Virus genome (UHGV): UHGV-2160239 | Reading direction: 5' to 3' (one strand) | From: a virus | DNA length: 34,355 nt | In this document: positions 4,808 through 18,507 of the stretch, piece after piece | How the letters are laid out: every line of letters starts with the position of its first letter | How positions within the stretch are numbered: position 1 is the first letter of the stretch | Made by a program: the position numbers and the translations under genes | Notes under the pieces: model-generated | The model's input: the letters and a program-made list of their open reading frames with translations, nothing else | Database searches by the model: none | What the model was told of the DNA's origin: nothing

Positions 4808-5143
4808 AGCAGCATCAGGATTTTTTAGTATGCCGTTCTCACAAAAAAACCGCTTGCCATGCCGCAATCAGTCAGGTTACATTTCCGCTGCACCTCATAA
4901 AACGGGTGCCGGGTTTCGCAGCCTGCTGACTAGCAAAGCGCACAACCGCGCCAGCGGTTTTTTTGTGCGTACTGTATTGCCACGTCTTTTTCGCACACGA
5001 ATTATGGCGGGGCGTACGGGGCCGACTTCGGTCGGGCCGGGTTCTTTGCTAGCCGGTACTGCGAACCTCGTACGTCTCGCCACCCACAGTTTCGCAGCTC
5101 TGGATGGTGAGTTTTCAAAACTTACTAGCAAAGAGGCCACACC

Positions 5144-5374
5144 ATGGCAAACCGCAAACAGCACCGCGCTATCGCGGAGCGTCGTCACATCCAGACTGAA
5201 ATCAACCGCAGACTTTCCCGCGCATCACGCGTCGCGCAAATCATGCACATCAATATGCTGCATGAGCGCAGCCACGCACTATCAAACATTTATTCCGCCT
5301 CTGTTTTCAGCTATCTGGCGGATGATCTGCGCGAGCTTCAGCAGCTCATCCAGCAGCAAAACCAACTCCATTAA
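5144..5374 (+). CDS. Hypothetical small protein upstream of A
   Basis: 76 aa; AGAGG RBS; basic, helical-looking sequence, possibly a regulator. Confidence 0.5.
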   Translation: MANRKQHRAIAERRHIQTEINRRLSRASRVAQIMHINMLHERSHALSNIYSASVFSYLADDLRELQQLIQQQNQLH

Positions 5375-5446
5375 TTCCTGTTCCGGGCCTTTCCTGCACC
5401 TTGCGGCGGGAGGCCTTCGCACATCTGTACTTTGACGGAGTTTGTG

Positions 5447-7753
5447 ATGAGTACCTCTCACTCATACCCGTGGAACGCGCCGGACTGGGACGTGGCAACA
5501 GCAAACGGCATCACGCCCGACGCTGCCGTCTCTGCCGTGCATGAAACCACCGAAACCACAAGCAACACAGCATTCGCCTACCTGACACCGGACGGCGAAC
5601 GCCGCGTGCTGGATATGAGCGACCTCCGCGCAGTCTGCCGCGAGTATCAGAAGGGGCTTCTGGAGCGCGAACGACAGGAAATCATCCGCCGCCGGAAACA
5701 TGAGGAGTGGCTGCGTCGCCGTCTGGCCACGCTGCCTTCATTCATCCGCACCACCTTCTCCAGAAAACTGGAAAAGATGGACAGAGAAACGCCGGAACGC
5801 GCTTACCACTGGCTTTGCGGAACGTTCGAGAAGCACGTTCTGCGCCGCGTGGATGTGGTAAATGAACAGTACGAACCGCAGACACCGTGGCCCGACATGC
5901 TGCTCCCTTTGCGCGACGCGTTTCACCGCCTGCCGTGGGCGGACAGGAAGAAAATGCGCCACCTCGCCTGGTTGCTGGCCTCCGTCATGACATCGGAATT
6001 CACACGCCGGTTTGATGACCAGTACGCGCTCACGGGCGATCTGGAATCATCCGTGGTGGACGCATACGGCTATATTGCAAGCCGCGCGACTTTTCTGAAC
6101 ATCTTCATCCCCGGTTGGCGGCATTATCAGGGTGAAAGTCTGACACCGGATGATGCACTCCGCTGTGTTTCCCGCCTCCAGTCGCAGAAGTGGTGGCTGG
6201 GAAAAATCCGGCGAATCCACGAATGCTGGCGCGAACATCTGTTGATTGCCACGGGGCACGTGAGCAAATACGCAGGCGCAAAATGCTCTGACGAGTGTCT
6301 CGCATCGTGGCGTGCGCAACGCAAGGCAAACCTTGAATGGATGTCGGCAATGGACCTGGAAAACGAGGATACGGGCGAGCGTATGCCGCTGCTCGACAAG
6401 GTGCTGGGCAGCGTTGCTAACCCGAAAATAGCCCGTCATGAACTCACCGTTCGTGCGGCTGGCTTTCAGGCGACCGCTGACGAGATGGGTTACGTCGCCA
6501 TGTTTTACACACTGACCGCCCCTTCCTCGTATCACTCAATGCGCGTCAAAGACGGAAAACGGAACGACAAATACAACGGGGCCAGTCCGCGTGCCACGCA
6601 GAAATATCTCTGTAAGGTCTGGAGCCGCGTTCGCGCCGCGTGGCGGCGTAAAGGCATCCGCACCTTTGGCATTCGCACCGCTGAGCCTCACCACGACGGA
6701 ACGCCGCACTGGCATCTCGTTCTCTGGTTCCACCCGGACGACACCGAAGAGGCCACACGCATATTCCGGGAGTATGCGCTGGCGGAAGACGGTGGTGAGT
6801 CGGGTGCTGACAAGTACCGCTTTGAAGCGGTCGAAGAGGACAAAACGCGCGGCCGCGCAATTGGCTACATCGTCAAATACATCTCCAAAAACATCGATGG
6901 CTACGGGCTGGATGGCGAAGCCGACCGCGAAACAGGAAAATCCCTGAAAGACGAAGCGCGACGCGTCAGGGCATGGGCTTCGCGCTGGCGTATTCGTCAG
7001 TTCCAGCAGATTGGGGGCGCACCTGTTTCGGTCTGGCGTGAACTGCGCCGACTGGGGGGGTGTGAACTGGTACTGCATCCACAGATTGAAGGCATTCGCG
7101 CCGCAGCAGATGAGGGGGACTGGCAGGCGTACACCATGCTTCAGGGTGGGCCTTTTGTGGAGCGTTGCGAACTGGTGGTTCGTCTCGCCTATGACAGACA
7201 GGAGGATGCCAACGCCTACGGCGACACAGTTTGCAAAATTGCAGGAGTCCGCGACATGACAATGCCGCCGGAAGACATGATTTTCACTCGCCTTAACACT
7301 TACAAAATTGTGCCAAAAGTCAGCAAAAACAATGACAAAGAACAAACAGAAGGCCGCGACGCGGCCCCTTGGAGTTCTGTCAATAACTGTACGCACAGAC
7401 GAAGCAGTGGTGAGCATGAAGGCGAGCATTCCGACAAAACACCACCGGAATCACCGCCGGAAACGGTGAAAAAAGCGCCGGAATCACCATCACAGACAGA
7501 AGAAGATAGCGCCAGTCTTAACCAAATCATCGGGCCGCTGGAGCGACTCGGCTTTACCGTGTCCCGCCACCTCGCAAAATCCGTTCTTGCGGGTGGCGTA
7601 GTGCGCTCAACCGACGGTGTTGTCGCCCGCTGGGACACATCATGTAACAGACTGGTGGTCACGCGCGCGAACGCGTCGCCGTCGCTGGTTGTTTCGAAGG
7701 TTTCCGAATACACCAGACGACTGAAATGGGCGCTGGCACGGAGGTCGCTGTGA
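5447..7753 (+). CDS. A: Replication initiation endonuclease (P2 gpA-like, HUH rolling-circle)
   Basis: About 768 aa from ATG 5447 (GGAG 6 nt upstream); HUH-type metal motif in TPHWHLVLWF and catalytic tyrosine motif GYIVKYISKNIDGY; size and position match P2 gene A. Confidence 0.9.
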   Translation: MSTSHSYPWNAPDWDVATANGITPDAAVSAVHETTETTSNTAFAYLTPDGERRVLDMSDLRAVCREYQKGLLERERQEIIRRRKHEEWLRRRLATLPSFIRTTFSRKLEKMDRETPERAYHWLCGTFEKHVLRRVDVVNEQYEPQTPWPDMLLPLRDAFHRLPWADRKKMRHLAWLLASVMTSEFTRRFDDQYALTGDLESSVVDAYGYIASRATFLNIFIPGWRHYQGESLTPDDALRCVSRLQSQKWWLGKIRRIHECWREHLLIATGHVSKYAGAKCSDECLASWRAQRKANLEWMSAMDLENEDTGERMPLLDKVLGSVANPKIARHELTVRAAGFQATADEMGYVAMFYTLTAPSSYHSMRVKDGKRNDKYNGASPRATQKYLCKVWSRVRAAWRRKGIRTFGIRTAEPHHDGTPHWHLVLWFHPDDTEEATRIFREYALAEDGGESGADKYRFEAVEEDKTRGRAIGYIVKYISKNIDGYGLDGEADRETGKSLKDEARRVRAWASRWRIRQFQQIGGAPVSVWRELRRLGGCELVLHPQIEGIRAAADEGDWQAYTMLQGGPFVERCELVVRLAYDRQEDANAYGDTVCKIAGVRDMTMPPEDMIFTRLNTYKIVPKVSKNNDKEQTEGRDAAPWSSVNNCTHRRSSGEHEGEHSDKTPPESPPETVKKAPESPSQTEEDSASLNQIIGPLERLGFTVSRHLAKSVLAGGVVRSTDGVVARWDTSCNRLVVTRANASPSLVVSKVSEYTRRLKWALARRSL

Positions 7754-11674: not shown

Positions 11675-12721
11675 TCAGGATGTGGGCTGGGTGTCCAGCA
11701 GTGCGTAAGGGTTAAAGCGGATCACCTCTTCGCCAAGCCAGTCATTGATATGCTTCATGGCCTCCATGACGGGCATCAGCTCGTTAATTGCGTAAACCCG
11801 CGCTGCCTTCTCCACATCACCAAACGCACTTTTTTCGCCCGGCATCGCCCCCATCAGTTGCGGCGGAACGCGGTGCGCAGCCAGCACATCATCACGGGAT
11901 GCCGCCTTAACATTCATGAACTCATCCTTTGCGGTGATCTGCTGGAACGGCAAAATTTGCACACCTTCTTTGCCCCCGTTGGGCGCGTGAATGAGCACGT
12001 TTTTAAATGCACCACCACCACGCGCACCCTGTAGCGTTTCCTTCAGGGAGTCCATGCTTTCGCGGTTTACCTGCGCTGCACCGATGTAGATGATGCACCC
12101 GGCGTGGGATCCATTGTCGTAGTACAGTTTTCTGAACATGTCCGCCGAATGAGACAGGCTGGCCGAGAGTAATGCGCCAAGATATTCCGGCATGCCGTAA
12201 ATTTCCTGGTTAATGTCCGGATTCATCAGGTGGCACACTTTGCCAGGGCGAAACTGAAACGCGTCGTTGCCATCCTGCACATACCACCATGATTCAAGAT
12301 CGCTTCCGCGCCGCATGTATTTCGCCAGTGCGTGCCGTAATTTAAGTGGTTCGCCGAGCATATTGCTCCGAAGCTCAAGGAATGCGTTACCGAACACAAA
12401 CCAGTCCAGCGCCAGCGCCGAGAAATCCTGCCGGGAAAGCAGCGGGTGCGGGATGTAGCAACCGAGTAATACATTGCGCTTAAAGTAAAGCGCAGACTGA
12501 TGCCAGGACGTTTGCCGGGCGGCTCTTGCCAGACCGTACCAGTCCACCGGGGTTTCATACCACCGCCCGTTATCAGCACAGTACATATTGTCCAGCAGGT
12601 CATGCCCGGTCAGGCGGTAAGGACCATCAAATGTGAATGCACTGAGCGACGATTCTTTCCTGAGCGCATCAGCGAGATCAATGCGTGAACTCATGCGCAC
12701 TTTTTTATTTTTTCTGCTCAT
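11675..12721 (-). CDS. Q: Portal protein (P2 gpQ-like)
   Basis: 348 aa; start overlaps the terminase stop; divergent from the capsid operon exactly as P2 Q-P; size matches gpQ. Confidence 0.85.
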   Translation of the reverse strand: MSRKNKKVRMSSRIDLADALRKESSLSAFTFDGPYRLTGHDLLDNMYCADNGRWYETPVDWYGLARAARQTSWHQSALYFKRNVLLGCYIPHPLLSRQDFSALALDWFVFGNAFLELRSNMLGEPLKLRHALAKYMRRGSDLESWWYVQDGNDAFQFRPGKVCHLMNPDINQEIYGMPEYLGALLSASLSHSADMFRKLYYDNGSHAGCIIYIGAAQVNRESMDSLKETLQGARGGGAFKNVLIHAPNGGKEGVQILPFQQITAKDEFMNVKAASRDDVLAAHRVPPQLMGAMPGEKSAFGDVEKAARVYAINELMPVMEAMKHINDWLGEEVIRFNPYALLDTQPTS

Positions 12722-14472
12722 CAGAACTCCATAACCGTGAAACGCTCGTTTTCTCCTTCGCCGCCAATTGGTTCGTTAATGACAGCAAGCATGGTTGCCC
12801 ACGCAAGGTCGCCGTGGCTGATCCCCCTCGCGCGGTCCGTTTCGTAAGTGATAAAGCCGCCCGGTGTTTTCACCTTACGCACGGCGTTAAAGGCCGCGAC
12901 CAGCTCGCGTTCGGCGCGATCGTATTCCCACCGCCCGGCACGCATTATTTGCAGCATTTTCAGTACCAGCGACCGTTTTGATGACAGCGTGAAGGTGTAC
13001 GGAATAGCAGCAGGGAAAAAACGTTTCACTATCTGATAAACAGCCTCCCCGTTCCCGCCCGTCACATCAATGCCGATGTGTTCCACGTTGTAGCGACACG
13101 TGAACTCCTCAATGACTCTGGCCTGTTCTTCAAACTCCAGCCCCTGAACGCGTCGCGTCTCCACCGTTCGAAAACGGCCACCAGGAACAGCCGGAGGAAC
13201 CACCACGGACACCGCGCCACTGTCGCCGTTTCCACTGCTGCCGTTTGCGTCATACCCAATCCATACCGGACGATTCCCCATCGGGCGGGGAGCAAAAGGT
13301 TTCCAGTCTTTCCAGTCGTCGTATCCGTCAACGCCGCAGCCAATCAGGATATTCAGGTTAAATGCCGATTCCCCTTCGCGGACAAACTCACACATATAGA
13401 GATTGCGGAACTCGTCTTCGGTGTTTTCATCACGAATTTCATCAATATCGGTGTGTTTCCAGCCGTGATTAACCACATCTTCCAGCGTGACAATTTGCCG
13501 CCACGTCCGGTCGGGGCAGATAAGCCCGTTATGCAGCGTTTTCCAGTCCACAGAAAAACGCTGGCGTTTATGCGCGGCCTTTTTCTCGTTCCAGCGGTCG
13601 CCGTTCCAGTAGACGTATGCCTCGTGCGTTTCGGTTGATGGCGTGGAGAAGTAGGTGCGTCGCAGCCCGCTGAGGGTTGCCATAGCGCCAGCCACCTTGC
13701 GCAGTTCAGCAAAGCGACTGACCCAGAAAAATTCATCAAAATAAAAATTGCCTGTGTAGGACTGTGCCGTCGCAGCAGAAGTGCCGAGAAAATGCAGCTC
13801 TGCGCCGTTGGAGAGGATGATTTTATCGCCCCCTTTCAGCTCCACATCAACTTCAGATGCAGCCTTCTGAATAATGCTTTTAAACTGGAACGCCTGACGA
13901 CGCGACGCAGACAAAAAAATCTGGTTACGCTGGTAAGGTTGCGCCACATCGTCACGCAGCGCCATCAGCAGTGCTTCCTGTGCAAAATACCAGGTCGCCC
14001 CAATCTGTCGGGATTTCAGGATCATCCTGTTACGTATCCCGGCTTCCCTGCAAAGGGTCAGGGAGTCAAACCAGCCCCGCTGATGCCACTCCAGCCTGCT
14101 GATGATTTTTTCCCGCAGTGCGGCAATCTGTTCCGGCGTGAAATGATTTTTAAGCTTTTTCGCCCGGCCTTTCTTTCCTGTGGCCGTCGCATCCGGCTGG
14201 TCATCATGCAGTTTTTTAAGCTGCCGGGTCAGCAGGTCTATTTCCTTAAAGTCACCGCCTGTTTTATTCTGTTTTTCAGTAAGCTGGATGAGGCGCGCAT
14301 CGATGGACTGCGTGACACGCTGCACGGGTGGCGTTTCATCCCACTGGTCGCGTTTTTTCCACGCATAAATCGTGTTCGGGTTTATTCCCATCAGACGTGA
14401 TATTTCAGCGGGCGGATAACCCTGCCAGTAAAGTTGTCGCGCACGCTGGCGCACAAAAGCGTCCTGAATCAT
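12721..14472 (-). CDS. P: Terminase large (ATPase) subunit (P2 gpP-like)
   Basis: 583 aa; N-terminal HTH-like segment YWQGYPPAEISRLMGINPNTIYAWKKR, then ATPase and nuclease regions; size and position as P2 P. Confidence 0.9.
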   Translation of the reverse strand: MIQDAFVRQRARQLYWQGYPPAEISRLMGINPNTIYAWKKRDQWDETPPVQRVTQSIDARLIQLTEKQNKTGGDFKEIDLLTRQLKKLHDDQPDATATGKKGRAKKLKNHFTPEQIAALREKIISRLEWHQRGWFDSLTLCREAGIRNRMILKSRQIGATWYFAQEALLMALRDDVAQPYQRNQIFLSASRRQAFQFKSIIQKAASEVDVELKGGDKIILSNGAELHFLGTSAATAQSYTGNFYFDEFFWVSRFAELRKVAGAMATLSGLRRTYFSTPSTETHEAYVYWNGDRWNEKKAAHKRQRFSVDWKTLHNGLICPDRTWRQIVTLEDVVNHGWKHTDIDEIRDENTEDEFRNLYMCEFVREGESAFNLNILIGCGVDGYDDWKDWKPFAPRPMGNRPVWIGYDANGSSGNGDSGAVSVVVPPAVPGGRFRTVETRRVQGLEFEEQARVIEEFTCRYNVEHIGIDVTGGNGEAVYQIVKRFFPAAIPYTFTLSSKRSLVLKMLQIMRAGRWEYDRAERELVAAFNAVRKVKTPGGFITYETDRARGISHGDLAWATMLAVINEPIGGEGENERFTVMEF

Positions 14473-14626
14473 TGCTCCCCCTGAGTAATTACAGGAAGAT
14501 TACCCGCGCGCGAAACCGTTCTCCTTAACCCCCTGTTCTGGCCATTTTCTTACAACAAAAGCCCTTTGTATCAGCCTGTTACGCTTTGCCATCATGACTG
14601 AAGAACCAGTCAGAGGGGCAAAAACT

Positions 14627-15463
14627 ATGGCTAATGAAAAAAAGACATCACGCAAAAAGTTTCGCGTGGCTGTCTCCGGATCAACTGTTGATGGCCGCGA
14701 AATCAGTCCGGTGCATCTGCGTGAAGCTGCTGAGAACTTCGACCCGGATGTTTACGCTGCCCGCGTGAACGTTGAGCACTATCTCTCGCCATGCCCGTCA
14801 AGCGAATTTTCCGCAATGGGCGATGTCACTGCACTGAGTACGGAAGACATTACGGAAGGTCCGCTGGCCGGGCGTACTGCGCTGTATGCAGAAATCGAAC
14901 CGACCGAGCGCATGAAGAAGCTTGTCGCTGACGGCAAGAAAATTTATTCCAGTATCGAACTGCACCCGCAGTTCTCCGTTAACGGGCGCGCCTATCTGGT
15001 CGGGCTGGCGATGACCGACACCCCGGCAAGCCTGGGCACTGAACGTCTGAAATTCACGGCACAGCAACGTCAGGCAGTGATGAAATTCAACAGTGTCCAG
15101 GGTGAGGCTCCGCTTATCTCCGAAGCCATCGAGTCTGAAATCATCGAAATGGCAGAACAACGCCAGGAAGAAGGCACCCAGTGGTTTAACCGCGTAATGG
15201 GAATTATTGGCCGTGGCCGCAAAGCGGATGACGCCAGTTTTTCCCGCATTCAGGAAGCGGTGGAAGGCGTCGCAACGTCACAGGCCGACATTATCGACCG
15301 TTTTAATGCACTGGAAGCCCGCCATAAGCAGGACCGTCAGAAAATCACATCACTGACCACAGAGCTGGCAGCACTGAAGGAAAAACTGCGCACGCAGGAC
15401 GGCGATCCGCAGAACCGGTTCACCGCAACGGGCGCAGCCTCCGACCAGCTGGCTGACTTCTGA
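14627..15463 (+). CDS. O: Capsid scaffolding protein (P2 gpO-like)
   Basis: About 278 aa from ATG 14627 (AGAGGGG RBS); N-terminus KKFRVAVSGSTVDGREI ... FDPDVYAARVNVEHY matches the gpO family; first gene of the rightward late operon. Confidence 0.85.
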   Translation: MANEKKTSRKKFRVAVSGSTVDGREISPVHLREAAENFDPDVYAARVNVEHYLSPCPSSEFSAMGDVTALSTEDITEGPLAGRTALYAEIEPTERMKKLVADGKKIYSSIELHPQFSVNGRAYLVGLAMTDTPASLGTERLKFTAQQRQAVMKFNSVQGEAPLISEAIESEIIEMAEQRQEEGTQWFNRVMGIIGRGRKADDASFSRIQEAVEGVATSQADIIDRFNALEARHKQDRQKITSLTTELAALKEKLRTQDGDPQNRFTATGAASDQLADF

Positions 15464-15486: not shown

Positions 15487-16539
15487 ATGAATCTGGTGAT
15501 GTCAGATATTACCCGCAACAAACTGGGTTGCTATATGGCGCAGCAGGCGTCGCTTAACAATATCCCGGTTTCTGCACTGGTATCGCGATTTACCGTAGAA
15601 CCCTCGGTGCAGCAGCGTTTTGAAAACGCAGTAAAGGAGAGCACTGAATTTACAAAAAAAATTAACGTATTCGGTGTGACCGACCAGAAAGGCGAAAAAA
15701 TCCTCCTGGATACCACCGGGCCGATTGCGCGCACGAATACCAGTTATGACGGCACAAAACGCCGTAACCCGAATAACGTGGTTGATCTGAAAAACCGCAA
15801 ATACCAGTGCGAACAGGTGAACTACGACACGTTTATTTCGTATCCGCAGCTTGATGCCTGGGCGGCACACCCTGATTTTCAGTCCCGCGTCAGCACACAG
15901 ATTGCCCGGCAGGTGGCGCTTGACCGCATCATGATTGGTTTCAACGGCACGTCTCACGCAGATGAGTCCAACTTCAGCACTAACAAGCTGCTTCAGGACG
16001 TTAACGTGGGCTGGCTGGAGCACATCAGAACCGATGCCAGTGAACGCGTTATGAATGATGTAACGCTGACCTCCCGCAACATGGACAACACCGTGGCGCA
16101 CGCGGGTAAGTATGCGAACGCTGATGCACTGGTACAGGACGCGCGCTCATCCCTGCTGGATGAATGGCACAAGGAAGCTGACGACCTCGTGGTGATTATG
16201 GGGCGCAACCTGTTTAACTCGCTGCGTCTGCCCGTGCTGAACAGCATCAGCGGCCAGAATCCCAATGCGGAATTACTTGCCGGACAGCTCATCCTGTCAT
16301 CGCGCGCCATTGGCGGGCTGGATGTATTCCTTGCGCCGTTCTTCCCGGATTCAACGATGCTGATCACCTCGTTCAACAACCTGTCGATTTACTGGCAGAA
16401 AGGAACAATGCGTCGCCTGATGAAAGACGAGCCGGAATACAACCGCATCGCCACTTACCAGTCCATCAATGACGCTTATGTCGTTGAAGACTATGGCAAG
16501 TGCGCGATGGTCACTGGCCTGAAGTTCGCCGACAGCTAA
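15487..16539 (+). CDS. N: Major capsid protein (P2 gpN-like)
   Basis: 350 aa; FTVEPSV motif near the N-terminus as in gpN; an alternative start at 15499 is possible. Confidence 0.9.
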   Translation: MNLVMSDITRNKLGCYMAQQASLNNIPVSALVSRFTVEPSVQQRFENAVKESTEFTKKINVFGVTDQKGEKILLDTTGPIARTNTSYDGTKRRNPNNVVDLKNRKYQCEQVNYDTFISYPQLDAWAAHPDFQSRVSTQIARQVALDRIMIGFNGTSHADESNFSTNKLLQDVNVGWLEHIRTDASERVMNDVTLTSRNMDNTVAHAGKYANADALVQDARSSLLDEWHKEADDLVVIMGRNLFNSLRLPVLNSISGQNPNAELLAGQLILSSRAIGGLDVFLAPFFPDSTMLITSFNNLSIYWQKGTMRRLMKDEPEYNRIATYQSINDAYVVEDYGKCAMVTGLKFADS

Positions 16540-16584
16540 TCAACTCACGGCGGGCATCATGCCCGCCTGTAACGGAGAGAAAGA

Positions 16585-17385
16585 ATGATTACCCCTGCAC
16601 AGCAACACTGGCAGAACGTGATGGCGCAGCGCGCAGGCCGGGCGAATGAAGGCGTGGATCACGCCGCACGTACCGCGCATGAAGAGGTGCTGTATCGTCT
16701 GCGTCTGGCACAGGTCCGACTTAAGGGCGTACAGGCCAGAAGCGCCAAAGCCGCCATCAAAAAAGAGTTGTTACCGGACTTTTCTGGCTGGATTGAAGGA
16801 ACGCTGGAGGCTGACGGCGGGCAGCAGGATGAGGTGATTGCCACGCTGATGGTGTGGGCGATTGACTGTGGCGATCTTCCGCTGGCATTGCGTATTGGTG
16901 CGTATGTGGTCCGTCACAACCTCATCATGCCGGATAACTTTGGCCGTACTGCTGCCACAGTGCTGACCGAAGAAATCTGCAACCCGGTACTGACGCAGGC
17001 CGGGACGGATGCCGACGCGGATTTGTCCGCCTTTATCGAACCACTGGACACCCTCCGGGAGATTGTCACCGACCAGGATATGCCGGACGAAGTACGCGCC
17101 AAATTATGCAAGGCGTGCGCCTTTGCCCGCCGTGGCCTGAGCGATGCGGACAGCATGGCCCTGTCACTGAAGCTGCTGCGCGAAGCGATGCACCTGAACC
17201 CGAACGCAGGTGTGAAACGCGAGATTGCAACCCTTTCCCGCGCCCTGAAAAAAGCCGATTCCGCAGCCGCCCCAGATGACGCCAGCGCACAGCAGGCGCA
17301 GGACGAAAGCAGCAAAAGTAAAAAGACAACGCGGAAGCCTGCAACACGAAAAACCACCGCGACGCAGAAGACGAAGCGCGGTTAA
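16585..17385 (+). CDS. M: Terminase small (endonuclease) subunit (P2 gpM-like)
   Basis: 266 aa following N; basic Lys/Arg-rich C-terminal tail; position as P2 M. Confidence 0.8.
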   Translation: MITPAQQHWQNVMAQRAGRANEGVDHAARTAHEEVLYRLRLAQVRLKGVQARSAKAAIKKELLPDFSGWIEGTLEADGGQQDEVIATLMVWAIDCGDLPLALRIGAYVVRHNLIMPDNFGRTAATVLTEEICNPVLTQAGTDADADLSAFIEPLDTLREIVTDQDMPDEVRAKLCKACAFARRGLSDADSMALSLKLLREAMHLNPNAGVKREIATLSRALKKADSAAAPDDASAQQAQDESSKSKKTTRKPATRKTTATQKTKRG

Positions 17386-17402
17386 CGACTGACCCCGTCA
17401 GC

Positions 17403-17470
17403 GGGCGGCGTGCGCGGTGTTCCGGTTTGACTCCGTGACCGTTTACACCGCGCACCCACCGCCCGATTTT
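17403..17470 (+). terminator. Long imperfect hairpin plus T-run between M and L (possible attenuator)
   Basis: GGCGGCGTGCGCGGTG ... CACCGCGCACCCACCGCC inverted repeat followed by GATTTTTTC, just upstream of the L start. Confidence 0.35.
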
Positions 17471-17477
17471 TTCAGGA

Positions 17478-17981
17478 GTGAACCCCATGAGTATGGTTGC
17501 CAGAACCAACCCCGGACCCGCAGAGGATGACATCACCGATACCGATGATGGTGATACCCGTATTTCAGCGGGTGCATTCTGGCCGGATATTGTGCTGCGT
17601 GAGCTGCGTCTGGCGGTACGACTGCCGGGGCGCGTGACCACCTCCCGCCTGCTGCATACCGCCACCGGGGCGGTGGCTCACGTTACCCGCGAGCTGGAAG
17701 CATGGCAGCAGGAACAGCAGGCGGCTGGCCATCAGACGCTGGCCGATGTTCCGGCACCCGTAATTAACGGAGAAAGCGTCAATCTCTGGCACTGGCGCAA
17801 TGCGGTTTATACCGCCACGCGCGCCCTGATTCTGGAGCGTTACCGCGATGCGGACACAACGGATAAGGGCGACCGCCGGGCGGACGCACTGGATATACAG
17901 ACATCGGATTTGTGGCGCGATGTGAGCTGGGCCATCTCTGACATTCTGCGCCGCCCGCGAATTTTTGCGGAGCTGTGCTGA
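17478..17981 (+). CDS. L: Head completion / stabilisation protein (P2 gpL-like)
   Basis: 167 aa; position and size as P2 L; stop overlaps the X start. Confidence 0.8.
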   Translation: MNPMSMVARTNPGPAEDDITDTDDGDTRISAGAFWPDIVLRELRLAVRLPGRVTTSRLLHTATGAVAHVTRELEAWQQEQQAAGHQTLADVPAPVINGESVNLWHWRNAVYTATRALILERYRDADTTDKGDRRADALDIQTSDLWRDVSWAISDILRRPRIFAELC

Positions 17982-18181
17982 TGAAAGTGAAGGCACTGGA
18001 AGGCGACACCGTGGATTCGCTCTGTTTCCGGTACTACGGCACGACGCAGGGCGTCACCGAAAAGGTGCTGGATGCCAACCCCGGACTCTGTCAGCAGGTA
18101 TTTCTGGACGCCGGGCAGGACGTGGAGATGCCGGAGCCGGAGAAGAAGAAACGAGAAATGATTCAGTTGTGGGGGGAGTAG
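17981..18181 (+). CDS. X: Tail protein X (LysM-like, P2 gpX)
   Basis: 66 aa from ATG 17981; MKVKALEGDTVDSLCFRYYGTTQGV ... ANPGL matches the gpX pattern. Confidence 0.8.
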   Translation: MKVKALEGDTVDSLCFRYYGTTQGVTEKVLDANPGLCQQVFLDAGQDVEMPEPEKKKREMIQLWGE

Positions 18182-18183
18182 CA

Positions 18184-18507
18184 GTGAGCACCATTCAAAC
18201 AGGGATCACAGAGCAGGTTATTGCGTGGCTCTTTGACCACCTGCCAACGGTGTATGCAGTAGGCGCGGCGGTCAGCATTTCCGCGCTGATGAGTCTTTAT
18301 GACGGACGAACACTGGTTCAGACCGTAACGGGATCGCTGGCGTGCGGCGTTCTTGCCATGGCCGTGGCCGGGTCGTTGCGCTTCTTCGGTTTTCCTGAAG
18401 ATGCCGTGACGTTTATCGGCGCATCAATCGGTTTTATGGGGGCAGAGAAAGCACGCGACAAGGTTATTGCGGCCTTTAATCGCAGGGTGAAGGAGAAAGA
18501 CGAATGA
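18184..18507 (+). CDS. Holin (putative)
   Basis: 107 aa from GTG 18184 (GGGGAG RBS); hydrophobic helices and charged C-terminus; directly upstream of the endolysin, stop overlaps its start. Confidence 0.55.
   Translation: MSTIQTGITEQVIAWLFDHLPTVYAVGAAVSISALMSLYDGRTLVQTVTGSLACGVLAMAVAGSLRFFGFPEDAVTFIGASIGFMGAEKARDKVIAAFNRRVKEKDE

Follow-up and report, generated by a model that had tools for sequence, protein, structure and literature searches.

P2 and 186 are textbook phages, P2-like prophages are amongst the commonest in Enterobacteria, and the late operons of P2 and 186 are described as simple units under four activator-dependent promoters. The question addressed here is what role is played by a long hairpin that lies between the late genes M and L in the UHGV virus genome UHGV-2160239, a stretch of 34,355 nt that was analysed in full and is referred to throughout as the window. 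This hairpin represents, for the P88 lineage, an ancient two-hairpin structure acting in cis, termed herein the M–L element, which is found in most P2-like phages. Intercistronic cis-acting hairpins in phage late operons are in themselves of a known kind; the M–L element, with its deep conservation, unvarying asymmetric internal loop and exclusive position, appears to be uncatalogued.

Structure of the element in the window

A first-pass annotation of this DNA had described a long imperfect hairpin with a T-run in the capsid operon between M and L. The hairpin is real, with positions 17402–17465 folding and A+T6 following at 17466–17472, and the sequence quoted for it, GATTTTTTC, is exact and located at 17465–17473. 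Its placement is also borne out, as M (PF05944) and L (PF05926) are neighbours in an O-N-M-L-X-lysis operon. An inverted repeat is indeed present, whilst the size proposed for it, some 16 bp, has to be replaced by 7+11 pairs plus 5 apical pairs. Similarly, the 92-bp distance given for the M–L gap applies up to the in-frame GTG at 17478, where an automatic open reading frame (ORF) call places the start of L, overlapping the Shine–Dalgarno (SD) sequence AGGAG. The credible start of L is the ATG at 17487, 8 nt past the SD sequence, as in the P88 homologue, and measured from there the gap is 101 nt. The features of the element and its flanks, with the basis for each, are as follows.

17383–17388, + strand: M stop codon TAA (17383–17385, closing the ORF 16585–17385) and the start of the conserved 5′ flank
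17389–17401, + strand: hairpin 1, CTGAC / CCC loop / GTCAG (fold)
17402–17408, + strand: large hairpin, outer stem 5′ strand, CGGGCGG (pairs with 17459–17465)
17409, + strand: 1-nt bulge, C (alignment column 34)
17410–17420, + strand: inner stem 5′ strand, GTGCGCGGTGT (11 perfect pairs with 17445–17455)
17421–17444, + strand: variable apical region, 24 nt (fold)
17445–17455, + strand: inner stem 3′ strand, ACACCGCGCAC (fold, pairing, covariation)
17456–17458, + strand: 3-nt 3′ bulge, CCA (alignment columns 119–121)
17459–17465, + strand: outer stem 3′ strand, CCGCCCG (fold, covariation)
17466–17473, + strand: A + T6 + C, a lineage-specific U-tract (T6 at 17467–17472)
17474–17489, + strand: L ribosome-binding site, with SD sequence AGGAG at 17474–17478 and start codon ATG at 17487–17489 (P88 annotation, PF05926)

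The 5′ flank has the family consensus A-C-C-G-A, which reads AACGA in the window (17384–17388), and the apical region contains a 5-bp sub-helix formed by CGGTT (17423–17427) and GACCG (17437–17441). The minimum free energy (MFE) of the structure is −48 kcal/mol, set against −30.1 ± 3.4 in 200 dinucleotide shuffles (z −5.2, 0/200), and the hairpin region is the most stable among 4283 sliding windows of 92 nt (mean −23.2, sd 6.5). An ‘antiterminator’ pairing of hairpin 1 with the outer stem was also considered and is not credible, with 3–4 bp possible at most.

Distribution amongst P2-like phages

In its general form the element comprises a hairpin with a C-loop, followed by an outer stem (usually GGCGG/CCGCC), a 1-nt C bulge, a freely varying inner stem and a 3′ CCA. 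It occurs as one copy per phage, in the M–L gap, in P2, 186 and phiCTX-like phages, and in those of Burkholderia, Ralstonia, Salinicola, Methylotenera, Acidovorax and Mannheimia. The gap measures approximately 83–113 nt, being 99 nt in P2, 92 in 186, 104 in Burkholderia phage AP3 and 113 in Acidovorax phage Acica, and it falls within the same range in Salmonella phages RE2010 and SEN5, Klebsiella phage ST437, a phiCTX-like Pseudomonas phage, Mannheimia phage PHL101 and an Arsenophonus phage-plasmid. Folding the gaps of P2, 186, RE2010, SEN5, AP3, Acica and ST437 returned the same anatomy.

A wider survey, in which one genome per species was scanned with an alignment of four M proteins, yielded 80 loci with M proteins that are 33–98 % identical. 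Among their hosts are Enterobacterales, Burkholderia, Ralstonia, Cupriavidus, Salinicola, Halomonas, Methylotenera, Rhodocyclaceae and Xanthomonas. In most of the 80 loci, a simple parser located the exact architecture 16–34 nt past the M stop codon, and 69 passed the filter for alignment building; the remaining survey loci either belong to degraded prophages or hold a copy of the element in which one stem position is mismatched. The whole large hairpin spans 33–116 nt (median 59), with an apical sequence and length that differ among clades, and the helix above the CCA varies from 5 to 14 bp. Hairpin 1 (3–5 bp with a C-rich loop) was found in 52 of 53 distinct 5′ segments, its stem being GCGC/GCGC, GCGT/GCGC, TCGG/CCGA, GTCG/CGAC or GCTC/GAGC depending on the clade.

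Two individual records deserve mention. Mannheimia phage PHL101 possesses an A+T-rich version of the element, and the ‘promoter’ and ‘terminator’ entered by its depositors (L175:1030–1072, DQ426904) fall inside the A+T-rich inner stem; these features are the sole public annotation encountered that touches the M–L gap. The linear record of Burkholderia phage phi52237 (NC_007145; L087:1–45 and L178:1–36) begins and ends inside the top of the hairpin, so that one end carries the 3′ half (...GGTCCACCGCC) and the other carries M. This break at a strong hairpin is probably one of assembly or coordinates, and not a biological end.

Covariation and unchanging bases

Covariation was assessed using a plain MAFFT alignment of 38 diverse copies, and the assessment was repeated on an alignment of 85 distinct sequences (A5). 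For the 38 copies, RNAalifold independently predicts exactly the 12 basal pairs of the hand-drawn structure, with 99.3 % of cells paired, compared with 74.3 % in shuffles. Compensatory double changes are present in 10 of the 12 basal pairs, comprising four of the six in the outer stem (columns 28–33 with 122–127) and all six aligned pairs of the inner stem. The covariation score is 0.651 versus 0.142 in shuffles, none of 500 of which reach it, and it falls to 0.05–0.10 upon sliding the partners by 1–3 columns. In the repeat with 85 sequences, 98.6 % of cells are paired and the score is 0.608. Variants of the outer stem include GGATGG/CCATCC, GGGAGG/CCTCCC, GCGTGG/CCACGC, AGCCGG/CCGGCT and GGGGG/CCCCC, with AAGGGG/CCCCTT in Mannheimia. 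The inner stem has almost any sequence across the family; its first pair is AU in 53 sequences, GC in 22, UA in 6 and CG in 2.

At the junction of the two stems, the bases themselves are held. The two G-C pairs of the outer stem that adjoin the bulges are present in 85/85 sequences of A5 (columns 122 and 123 being C), as is the bulged C on the 5′ side (column 34). Within the 3′ bulge, 78 sequences have C and 6 have T at column 119, whilst the C at column 120 and the A at column 121 are each found in 85/85. Conservation extends into the 5′ flank, with A at column 5 in 79/85, G at column 8 in 75/85 and A at column 9 in 83/85; in all clades the M stop codon is 0–4 nt from the A-C-C-G-A motif, and the C-rich loop of hairpin 1 is also strongly conserved. 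Base conservation in the element exceeds that of the flanking genes, whose proteins are 32–49 % identical.

Specificity and copy number

A covariance model of the M–L element, R1, scores 54.3 bits on the window (E 3e-9), with all conserved positions present and as the single real match in 34 kb. Elsewhere it returns one match per locus, always on the + strand in the M–L gap, at 31–73 bits and in 94 of 97 sources; amongst the misses, L125 and PHL101 reach 33–37.5 bits with filters off, and the L087 record of phi52237 is the one cut inside the hairpin. Of the 120 matches listed from a pattern scan of IMG/VR, 79 are flanked by homologues of M and L, and another 2 are truncated where their contig ends; the remaining 39 of those listed score ≤18 bits with R1 and are chance matches. 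Amongst complete E. coli genomes, 1055 of 5426 carry the P88-type gap; the median number of copies in these is one and the highest is three, in line with the copy number of prophages.

A possible second copy in the window, at 12492–12573 (+), is attributable to chance. It scores 12.7 bits with R1 and has GGGCGGC...CCACCGCCC ends without an inner stem (z −0.43), and it lies antisense, shortly downstream of the end of the P ORF (12721), where the portal gene Q sits in P88. Likenesses of the element to sigma-54 promoters, the RfaH ops site, Chi, the CRISPR I-E repeat and cos ends were rejected, as they are confined to the GGCGG-type core and fail at positions that vary in the family.

With regard to existing catalogues, an Rfam 15 scan of window positions 16500–18500 produced only spurious matches to microRNA models far below threshold, and a scan of eight diverse loci gave no match in the gap at E up to 1. 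The GenBank records of P2 and 186 hold no feature in the M–L gap, and PGAP likewise annotates none there. A comparative paper on Burkholderia P2-like phages gives a gap of roughly 100 nt in its tables, without comment. No description of the element was found in the searchable literature, where an older passing mention of a stem–loop is possible, the primary P2 (Linderoth et al. 1991) and 186 sequence papers and the P2 review being outside the scope of that search.

Genomic context

The window belongs, as a prophage, to the P88 / Xuanwuvirus type within the P2 family. Over the 451 nt surrounding the hairpin it shares 96–99 % identity with Escherichia phages 500465-2 and P88 and with related records. 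The genes about the element, assigned from Pfam and P88 annotation, are listed below.

12721–14472, minus strand: P, terminase large subunit
14594–15463: O, scaffold
15487–16539: N, capsid
16585–17385: M, small terminase (terS), PF05944
17487–17981: L, head completion (GPL), PF05926
17981–18181: X, with the lysis cassette and the R gene downstream

The M–L gap is the sole sizeable non-coding gap of this operon, the other junctions being short or overlapping; the last base of L is the first base of X (17981), and N and M are spaced by 45 nt. In 158 copies, measured from the stem end, the first start codon that opens an ORF of at least 120 aa lies at a median distance of 18 nt, such that the hairpin abuts the ribosome-binding site of L, with the SD sequence and start codon outside the structure. 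The gap of Yersinia phage vB_YenM_42.18 (L176:968–1200) has grown to 233 nt, yet the element is still 17 nt from the L start. A 30-aa ORF is annotated between M and the element in this phage. In all 12 annotated carriers, the genes downstream of the element are L, X, holin and endolysin.

Phages of the Vibrio K139 clade (L180:18285–18390; L301–L326) also have an M–L gap, of approximately 106 nt, which contains a different conserved hairpin with a bulge on its 3′ side. There is no match to model R1 in this gap. The outer stem co-varies here too (GCGCTC/GAGCGC, GCGCCTC/GAGGCGC, GCACCTC/GAGGTGC), and its 3′ flank, ACCUAUUYAGAG, is identical to that of enteric P2-type copies, which suggests that the K139-clade hairpin is a diverged homologue.

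Proposed function

The reading tentatively preferred, with somewhat less than even confidence, is drawn from comparative sequence analysis and holds that the M–L element acts as a sense-RNA boundary element in the late mRNA, recognised by a partner and lying between the head genes and those for L, X, lysis and tail completion. A stable hairpin immediately after O-N-M would define or protect the 3′ end of the head-gene segment, either because RNA polymerase pauses or terminates there or because 3′ exonucleases are halted at the hairpin once the RNA has been cleaved; alternatively, the separation could be achieved by control of L translation. The distal message (L, X, the holin and endolysin cassette, R and S) would in either case be lowered in amount or in translation relative to the capsid genes. 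The U5–8 tract at the base of the stem in the P88 lineage could contribute partial intrinsic termination, and the GG-C / CCA-CC core at the hairpin base would be read by a conserved partner.

We infer that RNA is the active form, and favour the sense strand because the orientation of the element is constant, because it abuts a ribosome-binding site, and because exceptions in the basal pairs are more often of the G·U than of the A·C type. The 12 basal pairs hold 16 G·U-type versus 9 A·C-type cells, or by eye approximately 14 versus 5 independent events, given that five of the A·C cells belong to one Symbiopectobacterium clade; this wobble favours the sense strand weakly. The conservation of the C bulge, the CCA bulge and the closing G-C pairs implies a conserved partner at the hairpin base, which would probably be a host machine rather than a fast-evolving phage protein. 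A more specific version is possible and is put forward with greater reserve: that the element is an uncatalogued class of structured RNA (less likely a folded single-stranded DNA (ssDNA) site), the GG-C / CCA-CC core of which is read sequence-specifically by a host machine such as RNase P, the 30S platform or RNA polymerase, thereby separating head-gene from L/lysis/tail-completion expression in nearly all P2-like phages, and that it is not a generic terminator or stabiliser.

The put RNAs of HK022 are comparable in that they consist of two adjacent hairpins with conserved unpaired bases and are recognised by host RNA polymerase, a partner that would explain constancy across hosts. In contrast to the M–L element, which lies approximately 2.8 kb into the late operon (O start at 14594), put sites are just downstream of early promoters; no sequence similarity between the two is known, and no downstream terminators needing suppression were identified. 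A promoter-proximal antitermination RNA of the put type was accordingly rejected for this element, which comes after O, N and M.

Several observations weigh against the boundary reading. The L-X-lysis gene order downstream of all annotated carriers, together with the greater distance of the lysis genes in HP1 and K139, accords with the boundary reading, yet this association is confounded by phylogeny. HP1 (L179:15750–17040) has M and L of the same Pfam families as the window, overlapping by 8 nt, and does without the element, which is thus dispensable in that lineage. The strand test is also weak, with upper-stem 1×1 mismatches being balanced (14 G·T-type versus 16 A·C-type) and the reverse strand folding slightly better on average by whole-hairpin MFE, so that a role at the level of DNA, on either strand, is possible. 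Moreover, a generic stabiliser or terminator needs no conserved C, CCA or G-C pairs, which leaves the mechanism of the core unexplained. Finally, a drop in expression would be expected after N, encoding the capsid protein, and not after M (terS), as the latter is needed in small amounts only.

Were the boundary reading to hold, a layer of control acting after initiation would exist in the middle of the capsid/lysis operon that is missing from current annotations. The unpaired bases of the element are unchanged from Mannheimia to Burkholderia phages. The element would constitute a concrete, mutable target for the balance of head, lysis and tail gene dose, and it provides a very specific nucleotide marker of P2-type head modules for the annotation of prophages and metagenomes. 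Should it be only a stabiliser or weak terminator, the addition is a modest one.

Alternative explanations

An unlikely alternative is a translational operator or enhancer for L, in which a phage or host protein, or the 30S platform, would bind at the hairpin base, 15–21 nt before the L start, govern the frequency of L translation and uncouple it from that of M. The tightly constrained spacing between stem end and start codon accords with this, as does the Yersinia phage 42.18, in the enlarged gap of which the element follows L and not M. Specific unpaired bases at the base of a helix are, as a matter of general knowledge, typical of protein-binding operators, such as the thrS operator, the T4 gene 43 operator and the coat operators of RNA phages; those of thrS and gene 43 resemble the M–L element in being hairpins with specific unpaired bases just 5′ of the SD sequence. 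HP1, lacking the element, has an L that overlaps M and is presumably translationally coupled to it, and the 3′ strand of the element, YCACC-N-CC, resembles the 3′ end of 16S rRNA (UCACCUCC). The M–L element differs from these operators in that the SD sequence and start codon are outside the structure and no binding protein is known; nor does any candidate binding protein co-vary with it. Furthermore, the recognised bases are unchanged across phages whose proteins are 30–40 % identical, and a phage-encoded partner is therefore disfavoured. On the side of an operator, the outer stem in Salinicola (L141–L143, L148, L161), GGGAGG / CCACCUCCC, mimics a duplex of SD and anti-SD sequences, for which coincidence is a possible explanation.

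Rather improbable is a plain partial intrinsic terminator, whereby the hairpin and U6 would release a fraction of RNA polymerases after M and do nothing else. The window does have a stable, G+C-rich stem base of 7 bp directly before A+U6, with the U-tract within 0–2 nt of the stem, and in 81 close relatives the U-run is held at 5–8 T and never interrupted. Relatives that are otherwise 97–99 % identical have 5, 6, 7 or 8 T, a variation in length expected for a slippage-prone homopolymer. Independent gains of a T-run are also seen in L173, in three IMG/VR contigs and in Salinicola, where L142 and L148 have one and their sisters L141 and L143 do not; such recurrence speaks for termination and equally fits a boundary role that added termination can reinforce. 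Across the family, 29 of 184 distinct copies, mostly from relatives of P88, have five or more consecutive T no further than 10 nt from the stem, and the other 155 lack such a run; P2 has T4, whilst 186, AP3 and Acica have no U-tract. The conserved role therefore cannot be intrinsic termination, which, from the pattern of T-runs, looks like an add-on acquired by several lineages.

The hairpin is likewise a poor terminator by its shape. A canonical example is compact, with a loop of approximately 3–8 nt, whereas that of the window is 64 nt long, with 1×3 bulges and a 24-nt apical region; a simple terminator scan made no call for it because loops of 3–8 nt only are admitted. A hand calculation of a d'Aubenton-Carafa-type discriminant places the 64-nt hairpin below zero, and termination is therefore likely to be weak. 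The C bulge, the CCA and the two closing G-C pairs are not needed by an intrinsic terminator, and their conservation is left unexplained by it. The proposal of the first-pass annotation that the structure is a partial terminator or attenuator can consequently be retained locally, for the G+C-rich stem base directly before A+U6, whilst it fails as a role for the whole family. The P88 lineage may use its copy as a partial terminator, and the adjustment by the hairpin of head relative to downstream gene expression, also put forward at that stage, is plausible.

A related system is the T7 terminator T-phi after gene 10, one of the terminators that follow capsid genes. Both are G+C-rich hairpins of late operons situated after highly expressed head genes, and in the P88 lineage U5–8 follows directly, with read-through that would lower the distal genes. 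The M–L element departs from T-phi in being mostly without a U-tract, in being long (median 59 nt) and interrupted, in its conserved bulges and pairs, and in following terS and not the capsid gene.

Quite improbable is a DNA-level element, namely a hairpin in ssDNA or a cruciform that would serve rolling-circle replication (lagging-strand priming or helicase loading) or recombination, and be read via its extrahelical bases. P2-like phages replicate by rolling circle, and the wobble statistics given above are not clearly in favour of RNA. In addition, a conserved basal box with extrahelical bases and a variable top is, from general knowledge, reminiscent of folded ssDNA sites of recombination or replication; integron attC sites and IS200/IS605 ends are recognised through extrahelical bases. 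Such a role sits poorly with an element that always has the same orientation in the operon and lies tightly against the ribosome-binding site of L, and with basal exceptions that on the sense strand are more of the G·U than of the A·C type. HP1 lacks the element despite having a replication protein of the same type, and no recombinase or HUH gene is specific to its carriers.

Decidedly unlikely, too, is a site of endonucleolytic processing, either an RNase P minihelix mimic or a T7-like RNase III site, which would split the late mRNA between M and L; the idea rests on resemblance to known substrates. RNase P cuts long hairpins with 3′ CCA-like tails (the 4.5S RNA precursor, the C4 RNA of P1/P7 and the CI RNA of P4) and some intercistronic regions of mRNA, and the element shares with the named RNAs a helix followed directly by an unpaired, conserved CCA, a single unpaired nucleotide 5′ of the helix, and, for part of them, a P2/P4 phage context. 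A host enzyme as the partner would also explain constancy across hosts. The CCA of the M–L element is, however, internal, being enclosed by a leader–trailer helix of 5–7 bp that is normally inhibitory to RNase P; there is no unpaired discriminator base, with the first inner pair co-varying, and the length of the helix above the CCA is not constant.

For RNase III, the T7 sites of the R1.1 type, along with intercistronic stabiliser hairpins (REP in malE-malF, and those of the puf operon), provide examples of bulged intercistronic stem–loops just before the next ribosome-binding site, with the same expected effect of differential stability between upstream and downstream segments. The overall helix length and the asymmetric loop of the element would fit an RNase III site, for which roughly two turns of dsRNA with an asymmetric internal loop are expected, whilst the pairs beside the loop are all G-C, which from general knowledge are poor determinants for this enzyme. 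Bases in the M–L element are also far more strictly conserved than in RNase III sites or REP, and its single copy is unlike the latter.

The weakest explanation, that the structure is a dispersed repeat of the REP or MITE kind or a functionless chance palindrome, starts from its being a G+C-rich imperfect palindrome in an intergenic gap and is excluded by its copy number in E. coli, by the one real match per phage, always in M–L context, and by its strong covariation.

Further observations

Readthrough or frameshifting from M into L was rejected because the two frames differ (104 nt from the stop codon to ATG 17487) and because M–L gap lengths, which range over 83–233 nt, show no 3-nt periodicity. 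The C-terminal tail of M (window 17300–17382; L088, L089) is strongly basic and differs greatly in length between phages. An AT-hook-like motif, KRGRP, lies within it in P2 and 186; RE2010, ST437 and Acica lack the tail. A link between this tail and the M–L element was rejected, there being no correlation between the two and many carriers having no tail. The second most stable fold of the window is found at 5005–5082 (+; −49 kcal/mol, z −3.5) and consists of a stem of 13 bp or more with a branched top. It lies inside the ORF 4830–5435, shortly upstream of a 773-aa ORF (5432–7753), the putative replication gene.

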